This document shows positions 2,557-51,821 of a DNA stretch of 64,000 nucleotides, one piece after another. The notes under the pieces were generated by a model that worked only from the letters and a program-made list of their open reading frames with translations, ran no database searches and was not told where the DNA came from. A program made the translations under genes and the position numbers. Numbering within the stretch: position 1 is the first letter of the stretch; each line of letters begins with the position of its first letter. The stretch comes from Escherichia coli. Its GTDB lineage: Bacteria > Pseudomonadota > Gammaproteobacteria > Enterobacterales > Enterobacteriaceae. The DNA lies in the NCBI RefSeq assembly GCF_003334355.1, contig NZ_QOWP01000010.1; one strand, 5' to 3'.

Positions 2557-3675
2557 ATGAATAACGAGGAAACATTTTACCAGGCCATGCGGCGTCAGGG
2601 CGTTACCCGGCGCAGCTTTCTCAAATATTGTAGTCTGGCTGCCACGTCGCTGGGATTAGGCGCGGGAATGGCACCAAAGATTGCCTGGGCGCTGGAGAAC
2701 AAACCGCGCATTCCGGTGGTATGGATCCACGGTCTGGAATGCACCTGCTGTACCGAATCTTTTATCCGCTCCGCTCACCCACTGGCGAAGGACGTCATCC
2801 TTTCCCTTATTTCTCTCGATTACGACGATACTTTGATGGCTGCCGCCGGAAACCAGGCGGAAGAAGTCTTTGAAGACATCATCACGCAATACAATGGCAA
2901 ATATATCCTCGCAGTAGAAGGCAATCCGCCGCTGGGCGAGCAGGGGATGTTCTGTATCAGCAGCGGTCGACCGTTTATTGAGAAACTCAAACGTGCCGCT
3001 GCCGGAGCCAGCGCGATTATCGCCTGGGGAACCTGCGCGTCCTGGGGCTGCGTGCAGGCCGCGCGGCCCAATCCGACGCAGGCAACGCCTATCGACAAAG
3101 TCATCACCGACAAACCCATTATCAAAGTACCTGGCTGCCCGCCGATCCCGGATGTGATGAGCGCCATCATTACTTACATGGTGACCTTTGATCGCTTGCC
3201 AGATGTCGACAGAATGGGCCGTCCACTGATGTTTTATGGTCAGCGTATCCATGATAAATGCTATCGCCGCGCTCACTTCGACGCCGGAGAGTTCGTCCAG
3301 AGTTGGGATGATGACGCTGCCCGCAAAGGTTACTGCCTGTACAAAATGGGCTGCAAAGGGCCTACCACCTATAACGCCTGTTCCTCCACACGCTGGAATG
3401 ATGGCGTTTCTTTTCCAATCCAGTCTGGTCACGGCTGCCTGGGCTGTGCGGAAAATGGTTTCTGGGATCGCGGTTCGTTCTACAGCCGCGTGGTCGATAT
3501 TCCGCAAATGGGTACTCATTCCACCGCCGATACCGTCGGTTTAACCGCGCTTGGCGTGGTGGCAGCGGCTGTTGGTGTGCACGCAGTCGCCAGCGCCGTT
3601 GACCAGCGCAGACGTCATAACCAGCAACCTACAGAAACCGAACATCAGCCAGGCAATGAGGATAAACAGGCATGA
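2557..3675 (+). CDS. hyaA: hydrogenase 1 small subunit (Tat signal RRSFLK), 372 aa
   Basis: ORF 2530..3675; known N-terminus [23 protein letters not shown] at ATG 2557; stop overlaps hyaB start (ATGA). Confidence 0.95.
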
Positions 3676-5465
3676 GCACTCAGTACGAAACTCAGGGATA
3701 CACCATCAATAATGCCGGACGCCGCCTGGTGGTCGACCCGATTACGCGCATCGAAGGCCACATGCGCTGCGAAGTGAATATTAACGATCAGAATGTGATC
3801 ACCAATGCCGTCTCCTGCGGCACCATGTTTCGCGGGCTGGAGATCATCCTACAAGGGCGCGACCCGCGCGATGCGTGGGCGTTCGTTGAACGTATCTGCG
3901 GCGTCTGTACTGGCGTACACGCCCTGGCTTCGGTTTACGCCATCGAAGATGCTATCGGTATTAAAGTGCCGGACAACGCCAATATCATCCGCAACATTAT
4001 GCTGGCAACGCTCTGGTGCCACGATCATCTGGTGCACTTCTATCAGCTTGCCGGGATGGACTGGATCGATGTGTTAGATGCGCTGAAAGCCGACCCGCGG
4101 AAAACCTCCGAACTGGCGCAAAGTCTCTCCTCTTGGCCGAAATCATCCCCTGGCTATTTCTTCGACGTACAAAACCGCCTGAAAAAATTTGTTGAAGGCG
4201 GGCAGTTGGGGATCTTCCGCAATGGCTACTGGGGGCACCCGCAGTACAAACTGCCGCCAGAAGCTAACCTGATGGGCTTTGCCCACTATCTCGAAGCTCT
4301 CGATTTCCAGCGTGAAATTGTCAAAATCCACGCGGTCTTTGGCGGTAAAAACCCGCATCCAAACTGGATTGTCGGCGGGATGCCTTGCGCCATCAACATT
4401 GACGAAAGCGGCGCGGTCGGGGCAGTCAATATGGAACGCCTGAACCTGGTGCAGTCAATTATCACCCGCACGGCGGACTTCATTAACAACGTGATGATCC
4501 CCGACGCCTTAGCCATCGGTCAGTTCAACAAACCGTGGAGCGAAATCGGCACTGGTCTTTCTGATAAATGCGTTCTCAGCTACGGCGCATTCCCGGATAT
4601 TGCCAACGACTTTGGCGAGAAAAGTCTGCTGATGCCTGGCGGCGCGGTGATTAACGGCGACTTCAACAATGTGCTGCCAGTGGATTTGGTTGATCCGCAG
4701 CAGGTGCAGGAGTTTGTCGACCACGCCTGGTATCGATATCCCAACGATCAGGTCGGGCGTCATCCGTTCGATGGCATCACCGACCCGTGGTACAACCCCG
4801 GCGATGTCAAAGGCAGCGATACCAACATTCAGCAGCTGAATGAACAGGAACGCTACTCGTGGATCAAAGCGCCACGCTGGCGCGGTAACGCGATGGAAGT
4901 GGGGCCGCTGGCGCGCACGTTAATCGCTTATCACAAAGGCGATGCTGCGACCGTTGAGTCGGTCGATCGCATGATGTCGGCGTTGAACCTGCCGCTTTCC
5001 GGTATCCAGTCAACGTTAGGCCGCATTTTGTGCCGCGCGCACGAAGCGCAGTGGGCCGCAGGTAAGTTGCAGTATTTCTTCGACAAGCTGATGACCAACC
5101 TGAAAAACGGCAATCTCGCCACTGCTTCCACGGAAAAATGGGAACCTGCAACCTGGCCGACAGAGTGCCGTGGCGTCGGCTTTACCGAAGCGCCGCGCGG
5201 GGCGTTAGGCCACTGGGCCGCCATTCGCGATGGCAAGATTGATCTCTACCAGTGCGTGGTACCGACCACCTGGAACGCCAGCCCGCGCGATCCCAAAGGG
5301 CAGATTGGCGCTTATGAAGCGGCGCTGATGAACACCAAAATGGCGATCCCCGAGCAACCGCTGGAGATCCTGCGTACTCTGCACAGCTTTGATCCGTGCC
5401 TCGCCTGTTCAACACACGTGCTGGGCGACAACGGTAGCGAGCTGATCTCCGTGCAGGTGCGTTAA
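3672..5465 (+). CDS. hyaB: hydrogenase 1 large subunit [NiFe], 597 aa
   Basis: Full [33 protein letters not shown]... ending ...[24 protein letters not shown] (C-terminal metal-binding motif). Confidence 0.95.
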
Positions 5466-12369: not shown

Positions 12370-12402
12370 GAGGCTGATGACAAACGAAGAACTGTCTAAT
12401 GC

Positions 12403-48940: not shown

Positions 48941-50449
<1,509 letters not shown>

Positions 50450-50544
50450 GGGACTTAGCCTGCGGCGGTTTTGTTTGGCTTCAGCAGCGGGTTGCGCTCC
50501 CTTAATGTGCCTCGCCATATAAATTGAATGGTGCAGGGAGCGCG

Positions 50545-50574
50545 CAGGGGGCGGCCAATCGCCGCCGCCCCCTG
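50545..50574. other. GC-rich perfect 11-bp stem hairpin about 100 nt downstream of putP, no T-run
   Basis: cagggggcggc-caatcgcc-gccgccccctg. Confidence 0.3.
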
Positions 50575-50747
50575 CTGTCCCGGCCTTCGGGGAACGCTTC
50601 AGCGATTTTGACGCCACCAACACCCGAGCTGTTATTATGTTCCGGGCAAAAAGTTAGATTTGATAATCGCGGATGGACGAAATTGCTTGATACACCCGCT
50701 TATCAGTTTTACATGGAAGCTCTGATGCATTGAGTCTGGACAGTTTT

Positions 50748-50782
50748 GTCGGCTGGATACGGCGTTTACGCGGCATCCGGCA
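50748..50782. repeat. REP element upstream of efeU
   Basis: gtcggctggatacggcgtttacgcggcatccggca. Confidence 0.45.
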
Positions 50783-50912
50783 AGAACACATGGCTCGTTG
50801 TAAACAATCCCATCTTTGTACCTGGAATAATCGTTTATATCCCCTGGCATTACCTCTCTTTGTTTACATTTCAACATCATTTTATAAACATTCCGCTTGT
50901 ATTTTTCTTTAC

Positions 50913-50931
50913 CGTAATGATAATCGCTATC
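50913..50931 (+). promoter_or_regulatory. Fur-box-like site in the efeU promoter region
   Basis: cgtaatgataatcgctatc matches GATAATGATAATCATTATC at 15/19 positions, about 60 bp upstream of efeU ATG. Confidence 0.45.
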
Positions 50932-50990
50932 ACTGCGATTTACTTTTCTTTGCATAGATTGACTCAGAAAAACGTTTAAGGGTGGGTGGC

Positions 50991-51821
50991 ATGTTTGTTC
51001 CGTTTCTCATTATGTTGCGCGAAGGACTTGAAGCCGCGCTGATTGTCAGTTTGATTGCCAGCTATCTTAAGCGTACCCAGCGAGGCCGATGGATTGGTGT
51101 GATGTGGATTGGCGTGTTGCTTGCCGCTGCGTTGTGCCTGGGCTTGGGTATCTTCATTAACGAAACCACCGGCGAATTTCCGCAAAAAGAACAGGAACTG
51201 TTTGAAGGTATCGTGGCGGTGATCGCCGTGGTGATCCTTACCTGGATGGTTTTCTGGATGCGCAAAGTGTCGCGCAACGTCAAAGTGCAACTGGAACAGG
51301 CAGTCGATAGCGCATTGCAGCGTGGAAATCATCATGGCTGGGCGCTGGTGATGATGGTCTTTTTTGCCGTTGCAAGGGAAGGGCTGGAGTCGGTCTTTTT
51401 CCTGCTGGCGGCATTTCAACAAGATGTCGGGATCTGGCCACCGCTGGGTGCAATGCTCGGTCTTGCTACTGCCGTGGTGCTAGGCTTCCTGCTCTACTGG
51501 GGCGGTATTCGCCTCAATCTTGGTGCATTTTTTAAATGGACCAGCCTGTTTATTCTCTTCGTCGCCGCAGGGCTGGCAGCTGGTGCCATTCGCGCATTTC
51601 ATGAAGCCGGATTGTGGAACCACTTTCAGGAAATCGCCTTCGATATGAGTGCGGTGCTCTCAACTCACTCGCTGTTTGGCACGCTGATGGAAGGGATTTT
51701 TGGCTATCAGGAAGCGCCGAGCGTCAGCGAAGTCGCCGTCTGGTTTATTTATCTCATCCCGGCGCTGGTGGCATTTGCTCTGCCACCACGCGCAGGGGCG
51801 ACAGCGTCTCGCTCCGCGTAA
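50991..51821 (+). CDS. efeU: ferrous iron permease EfeU (FTR1/OFeT family; REGLE motifs), 276 aa, intact
   Basis: ORF 50982..51821; MFVPFLIMLREGLEAALIVSLIASYLKRTQ from ATG 50991; uninterrupted reading frame with two REGLE motifs. Confidence 0.9.
   Translation: MFVPFLIMLREGLEAALIVSLIASYLKRTQRGRWIGVMWIGVLLAAALCLGLGIFINETTGEFPQKEQELFEGIVAVIAVVILTWMVFWMRKVSRNVKVQLEQAVDSALQRGNHHGWALVMMVFFAVAREGLESVFFLLAAFQQDVGIWPPLGAMLGLATAVVLGFLLYWGGIRLNLGAFFKWTSLFILFVAAGLAAGAIRAFHEAGLWNHFQEIAFDMSAVLSTHSLFGTLMEGIFGYQEAPSVSEVAVWFIYLIPALVAFALPPRAGATASRSA

Follow-up and report, generated by a model that had tools for sequence, protein, structure and literature searches.

The putP-efeU spacer of Escherichia coli raises the question of what a long, GC-rich hairpin represents when it lies downstream of a gene and is not a terminator. 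In the 64,000-nt stretch of DNA analysed here (the window), the putP stop codon is at 50447-50449 and efeU starts at 50992, and the hairpin starts 95 nt downstream of the stop codon:

50544-50575, no strand assigned: the reported hairpin, stem-loop 2 of the repeat TRIP1b (inverted-repeat search, folds, shuffles and an 18-copy alignment)

The window sequence here reads GCAGGGGGCGGC-CAATCGCC-GCCGCCCCCTGC (stem arm, loop, stem arm), with 50544-50555 pairing with 50564-50575 across an 8-nt loop (one match in the inverted-repeat search, none expected by chance). An earlier note on this DNA had described a perfect 11-bp, all-GC stem; a perfect GC hairpin is present, but its stem comprises 12 perfect pairs, 11 of them G:C and one, the second, A:T. 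This is the longest perfect hairpin in the window, and a stem of at least 12 bp appeared in only one of 20 composition-preserving block shuffles. Minimum-energy folds contained the hairpin on both strands, as RNA and as DNA, and the DNA fold of 48 nt gave -19.7 kcal/mol, with z = -3.0 on the plus strand and -3.4 on the minus strand. The feature is real and non-random.

Several familiar explanations were rejected. An intrinsic terminator was ruled out, as the earlier note had judged, since the stem has no U-tract and the terminator scan made no call at the hairpin; the flanks are free of T-runs on both strands, the downstream sequence being CTGTCCCGGCC on the plus and GCGCTCCCTGC on the minus strand. 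Its view that the hairpin is not a REP sequence also held, as REP families D1 and I4 and the naRNA4 match map to 50743-50787, outside the hairpin, where a genuine REP is found. A known RNA family was likewise excluded, the Rfam E-value scan of 49900-51300 giving only a chance-level miRNA match at the hairpin. Two neighbouring features were recorded in the same spacer:

50747-50783, no strand assigned: REP element, outside TRIP1b (repeat family D1, inverted pairs I4, weak naRNA4 Rfam match)
50434-50476, plus strand: hairpin across the stop codon of putP, with UUUUGUUU after it (fold -21.2 kcal/mol, z = +0.3)

The REP element has relatives in the window at 12398, 38047 and 54365. The hairpin at the putP stop codon is not distinctive by its z score and drew no call from the terminator scan; it may be a weak putP terminator upstream of TRIP1b.

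The earlier note had treated the hairpin as an isolated local feature, and in this it was mistaken, as the hairpin proved to be one module of a dispersed, named repeat with the following parts:

50491-50636, plus strand: TRIP1b, a 146-bp partial copy of the TRIP1/RRS repeat (BLAST, alignments, published length and position)
50494-50543, plus strand: stem-loop 1 of the repeat (DNA and RNA folds, RNAalifold)
50579-50591, plus strand: short second stem, CCCG-GCCTT-CGGG, the distal copy of an internal direct repeat (fold)

Homology begins at 50491, 41 bp after the putP stop codon, and the G+C content of TRIP1b is 62% against 48% for the spacer. BLAST against K-12 TRIP1a returned one match of 118 nt at 78% identity (E = 7e-20) and another of 60 nt at 87% (E = 2e-14), and BLAST and alignments together matched TRIP1b to both TRIP1a and TRIP1c over the two outer modules. 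The full-length repeats, about 265 bp by alignment of the copies, lie at lysO-aqpZ and dusC-yohP. TRIP1b keeps two modules, a left one in which stem-loop 1 is followed by the hairpin and a right one that ends in GATTTTGACGCCACCAAC; the central 125 bp are absent. As Rudd (1999) is quoted in PMC10888264, TRIP1b is 146 bp long, lies 41 bp past the stop codon of putP and represents a partial TRIP1a with a 125-bp internal deletion. Position, length and deletion in the window equal these published values, and the element is therefore TRIP1b. Sequence comparison makes it essentially certain that TRIP1b is a third, truncated copy of the TRIP1 repeat in E. coli and that the hairpin is its stem-loop 2. 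TRIP1b was already known, having been catalogued in 1999 (Res Microbiol 150:653, cited as the original description of TRIP1) and surveyed in 6,725 genomes in 2024 (Li et al. 2024, PMC10888264).

Within the repeat, stem-loop 1 is predicted to form from an outer stem, GCGCTCCC / GGGAGCGC, and an inner stem, GCCAT/ATGGTGC. The second, ttcg-looped short stem that the earlier note had seen beyond the hairpin does exist, although it is weak and its predicted form is CCCG-GCCTT-CGGG, with CC-TTCG-GG as an alternative reading; in full-length copies the 3′ half pairs instead with the centre that is lost here (alignment columns 164-168 with 252-256). The TRIP1b of MG1655 differs from the window copy in nothing material, with few substitutions and 98.3% identity over the spacer, from which it follows that the window does not come from K-12 itself. 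Immediately downstream, efeU in the window (50992-51821) is an intact ORF of 276 codons, whereas in K-12 MG1655 it is a frameshifted pseudogene. TRIP1b is overlapped by two mechanically called ORFs, one of 64 codons (50429-50623, minus strand) and one of 69 codons (50524-50733, plus strand), and a "hypothetical protein" is annotated across the repeat in some RefSeq records. These are likely spurious, since the repeat is polymorphic for an indel of 125 bp, a length not divisible by three.

The distribution of the repeat was examined by blastn of 50450-50640 against 5426 complete E. coli genomes, which placed it at a median of three sites per genome, with a maximum of eight; the extra places outside putP are the lysO-aqpZ and dusC-yohP spacers. 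No second TRIP1 copy was found within the window. Searching 100,044 species representatives for the central 18-mer GGCGAACAAAATCGCCGC returned 96 stretches, an exact match of this length being too strict to test the wider enterobacterial conservation that has been published. True TRIP1 copies among the 96 came from E. coli, E. albertii, E. whittamii, two Escherichia sp. and an unclassified Proteobacteria MAG contig; a Bacillus sp. assembly also gave a TRIP1 copy, and the remaining 18-mer matches were due to chance. The Bacillus sp. copy lies on a 583-bp contig with a coverage of 0.7 and a putP-type left flank, and is almost certainly E. coli contamination.

The earlier note had proposed looking for the palindrome in related genomes, and there it proved strongly conserved. 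Across an alignment of 18 TRIP1 copies from E. coli, E. albertii, E. whittamii and two Escherichia sp., 99.5% of cells in the hairpin were paired; ten pairs were invariant, and at the other two the same three copies had A:T in place of C:G, both bases having changed. Stem-loop 1 kept eight pairs (RNAalifold, 18 members), with 98.5% paired and one compensated change from U:A to C:G. Even the degenerate O157 copy keeps a shorter hairpin, GGGGGCAA..TTGCCC. Template-switch correction in DNA palindromes can mimic compensated pairs without selection. Covariation was accordingly set aside as proof of selection, both compensated pairs of the hairpin coming from the same three sequences. The alignment thus gives modest evidence that the fold matters, in a way that does not distinguish the DNA from the RNA level.

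The origin of the truncation could be traced at the putP locus itself, where the boundary maps as follows:

50574-50576, no strand assigned: junction left by the 125-bp internal deletion, which took out the centre of the repeat (comparison with strain 2014C-3011)

At the same putP-efeU site, strain 2014C-3011 carries a left half that is 100% identical to the window and 125 extra bases at 50574/50575, and by alignment K-12 TRIP1a and TRIP1c carry the corresponding extra centre. An imperfect direct repeat of about 22 nt, CTGCACCCCCGGGCTCTGGCGAAC / CTGCCCCGGCCTTCAGGGAAC, flanks the lost segment. Since the left half of 2014C-3011 is identical and is followed by the additional 125 bases, the comparison indicates that the short TRIP1b is a deletion derivative of a full-length copy. 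The K-12-type spacer was present in 3,562 of the 5,426 genomes. A full-length TRIP1 adjoins putP in 1,012 genomes (about 19% of complete E. coli), leaving the short form in about 2,550 of the 5,426 (3,562 minus 1,012, in agreement with other genome counts), and the remaining genomes, about 1,860, have other putP-efeU arrangements. One of these is found in the B2 strain UPEC132, whose 219-bp spacer, at 2699-2917 of locus L007, has a canonical intrinsic terminator, GCAGGCAGAGGGCAATCAGTGATTGCCCTCTGCGTTTTTT, directly after putP and contains neither TRIP1 nor REP; relative to it, the K-12-type spacer has about 410 bp in place of about 95 bp. In O157 strain FDAARGOS_293 the putP-efeU spacer carries a degenerate, AT-shifted TRIP1-like copy that is split by an AT-rich island of about 2.2 kb. 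The hypothetical protein that the island encodes (WP_001247490.1, 447 aa) contains internal repeats and has no match in NCBIfam. The TRIP1-like copy continues with its right end at about 2624-2670, the whole feature spanning 236-2670 of locus L009. Comparison of the B2 and O157 spacers revealed no clean empty site that would define the ends of a mobile element.

A function has been published for the full-length paralogues. TRIP1a corresponds to RRS-lysO and TRIP1c to RRS-dusC, and "a third partial repeat" is mentioned in addition (Pham et al. 2024, PMC11194060). The RRS are GC-rich, near-perfect repeats of 222 bp, located about 650 kb either side of dif (PMC10287960; PMC11194060), and trigger transient post-replication gaps, bound by RecA and SSB, on the lagging strand (Pham et al. 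2023, PMC10287960; Pham et al. 2024, PMC11194060). Their activity has been attributed to a G-quadruplex (G4), 5′-GGGGGTGCAGGGGGCGGCGG-3′, at which Pol I, II and IV are blocked (PMC11194060). When the RRS is unwound at the replication fork, the G-quadruplex and hairpins form on the lagging-strand template and stall the polymerase, so that a single-strand gap is left transiently. In MG1655, ssGap-seq gave only two peaks, at lysO and dusC (PMC10287960), and gaps failed to form in vivo at an RRS that had been inverted by engineering (PMC11194060). With the C-rich RRS strand as lagging template in vitro, by contrast, about two-thirds of encounters are reported to give gaps (2026 preprint, PMC13308219).

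The deletion in TRIP1b falls within this G4 motif. The motif is the reverse complement of CCGCCGCCCCCTGCACCCCC, which consists of the 3′ arm of the hairpin and the first 9 nt of the deleted segment, so that three of its four G-runs (GGGGG, GG, GG) are the complement of the hairpin 3′ arm. Loss of the central 125 bp therefore cut the first G-run of the motif. Neither strand of the window contains the exact string, in agreement with the published genome search, which found no further site for the RRS G4 sequence (PMC11194060). What is left in the window is a shortened form:

50562-50581, minus strand: remnant of the RRS G4 motif, GGGACAGCAGGGGGCGGCGG (G4Hunter and the published motif)

In the remnant the first G-run has gone from 5 to 3 and the loop from 4 to 6; the minus strand retains four G-runs (3, 5, 2, 2), and G4Hunter peaks at 1.36 in TRIP1b versus 1.84 in TRIP1a and TRIP1c. 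The orientation of the element was also considered. The plus strand of the window is collinear with the plus strand of K-12, and there TRIP1b has the orientation of TRIP1c, opposite to that of TRIP1a, while lying on the replichore of TRIP1a. From this synteny, and assuming the orientation of the window relative to oriC, we infer that the G-rich strand of TRIP1b is on the leading-strand template. Applied to both RRS, the same derivation made the G4 strand the lagging-strand template, as the published rule states.

Because the motif is clipped and its G-rich strand would lie on the leading-strand template, TRIP1b most likely has little or no RRS activity. Loss of the centre removed part of the G4 motif, and the inverted orientation is the one in which an engineered RRS gave no gaps in vivo. 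Very probably, then, TRIP1b is a truncated TRIP1 copy bearing stem-loop 2, a decayed RRS with little or no gap-triggering activity. Such a copy would probably persist as a stable DNA- or RNA-folding relic, be a substrate on which other copies of TRIP1 can recombine ectopically, and form a structured stretch in any read-through transcript from putP. Against decay, it can be argued that four G-runs and a very stable hairpin (the latter on both strands) remain, that the C-rich RRS strand still gives gaps on the lagging template in vitro (PMC13308219), and that about 47% of genomes carry the short form in near-identical sequence, although this near-identity could reflect either recent common descent or retention for a use.

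These observations leave some room for the view that TRIP1b is not inert and acts as a weak gap or topology element near Ter or sets the putP mRNA 3′ end, which we consider unlikely. TRIP1b would then be a natural "G4-clipped, inverted, centre-less" RRS that folds at the fork or in RNA, with a role at the putP 3′ end in lineages where this segment replaced the ancestral putP terminator. As an attenuated yet active RRS, it would form occasional lagging-strand gaps inside the Ter-flanking region, the 12-bp hairpin and residual G-runs folding when the DNA is unwound; the stability of the DNA hairpin on either strand (-19.7 kcal/mol), the retained four-G-run motif, the conservation of the hairpin with compensated pairs and the gaps seen in vitro with the RRS-C strand (PMC13308219) all favour such activity. 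It is nevertheless improbable, given that MG1655 shows just two peaks genome-wide (PMC10287960), that a full-length RRS is gapless in vivo once inverted (PMC11194060), that the missing 125-bp centre held most of the predicted structure, and that about one-third of E. coli genomes lack a K-12-type TRIP1b. The earlier note had suggested an RNA stability element at the putP 3′ end. Such a role in RNA, by which transcription reads through from putP into TRIP1b and the GC hairpin blocks 3′-to-5′ exonucleases, defining and stabilising the putP mRNA 3′ end as REP elements do, strikes us as similarly doubtful. It would suit the K-12-type spacers, which do not have the canonical terminator GCAGGCAGAGGGCAATCAGTGATTGCCCTCTGCGTTTTTT that B2 strains have after putP and whose sole upstream candidate is the weak hairpin with UUUUGUUU, and it is consistent with G:U pairs in stem-loop 1 that suit the plus (mRNA-sense) strand and with the location of all five TRIP1 types just downstream of a gene (PMC10888264). 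On the other hand, the sole putP entry in the Term-seq tables of Adams et al. (2021) is a 5′-UTR 3′ end at 1079260, in tables that are possibly incomplete and for a gene poorly expressed without proline; the hairpin has no Rfam match, and it is at the DNA level that activity of the full-length paralogues has been demonstrated.

The remaining explanations concern the origin of the repeat and local regulation. That TRIP1 is, or once was, a non-autonomous mobile element, with TRIP1b a decayed insertion and the hairpin a recombinase recognition structure, would account for its dispersal at no fewer than five fixed intergenic loci with presence/absence polymorphism, and for copies in several Escherichia species; an IS110-family RNA-guided transposase inside TRIP1a in one strain, and the 2.2-kb island that splits the O157 copy, also point towards mobility. 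Yet the IS110 element and the island are insertions into TRIP1 rather than parts of it, no terminal inverted repeats or target-site duplications were seen in TRIP1, its copy number is very low, and the "empty" B2 site is a replacement (about 95 bp versus about 410 bp) rather than a clean excision, all of which makes mobility a long shot. The IS110-family element (NF033542, 359 bits) lies in the lysO-aqpZ spacer of E. coli MSB1_8B (about 2673-4058), inside the central hairpin of TRIP1a, and suggests that insertion sequences of the bridge-RNA type can target TRIP1. The earlier note had further raised a protein-binding palindrome or the end of an unannotated small RNA. Perfect dyad symmetry alone speaks for an operator or a small-RNA 3′ end, but the same palindrome recurs in the unrelated gene contexts of lysO, dusC, alx and copA, which argues against locus-specific regulation, and with no promoter-like site in 50300-51100, no U-tract and no Rfam family at the hairpin, either role is very hard to credit.

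The reading of TRIP1b as a decayed RRS copy carries little weight as a discovery, as the function of the full-length paralogues was published between 2023 and 2026. The modest value of TRIP1b lies instead in being a natural dissection of the RRS, in which the hairpin and three of the four G-runs are kept, the centre is absent and the orientation is opposite; comparison of short and full-length alleles at the putP locus could show which parts of the RRS are needed for gap formation.

Among known systems, TRIP1b resembles a Rho-independent terminator in having a strong GC stem-loop downstream of a gene, and differs in the lack of a U-tract on either strand and in its distance of 95 nt past the stop codon. 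With REP/BIME elements it shares the character of GC-rich intergenic palindromes that lie downstream of genes and can fold in mRNA and in DNA, although the sequences are unrelated, TRIP1 has 3-5 copies against several hundred for REP, and a true REP lies 170 bp further on. A likeness of another kind, to the orphan TwoAYGGAY RNA motif (RF01731; Weinberg et al. 2010, PMC2864571), is seen as repeated sub-threshold matches in full-length TRIP1/RRS copies:

L006, 3230-3381, minus strand: RF01731 match in a full-length TRIP1/RRS copy
L020, 140-279: RF01731 match in a full-length TRIP1/RRS copy
L081, 1336-1475: RF01731 match in a full-length TRIP1/RRS copy
L023, 442-579: RF01731 match in a full-length TRIP1/RRS copy

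These matches score 29.8-36.9 bits against a gathering score of 43, lie on the G4 strand, and span an AUGGAU-loop hairpin, which has three compensated pairs in two copies, and a second hairpin. RF01731 has no match in the window, the matching region being exactly the part deleted from TRIP1b, and no link between RRS and TwoAYGGAY was seen in the RRS/TRIP1 literature cited here. The closest comparison is with the RRS themselves. TRIP1b is 146 bp long, without the central 125 bp and with the G4 motif clipped; it is not among the two ssGap-seq peaks; its G-rich strand would be the leading-strand template, whereas that of both RRS is the lagging-strand template; and it is not placed symmetrically about dif, lying in K-12 at about 1.081 Mb, some 166 kb inside RRS-lysO. 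What TRIP1b shares with the RRS is the hairpin, stem-loop 1 and the right end.
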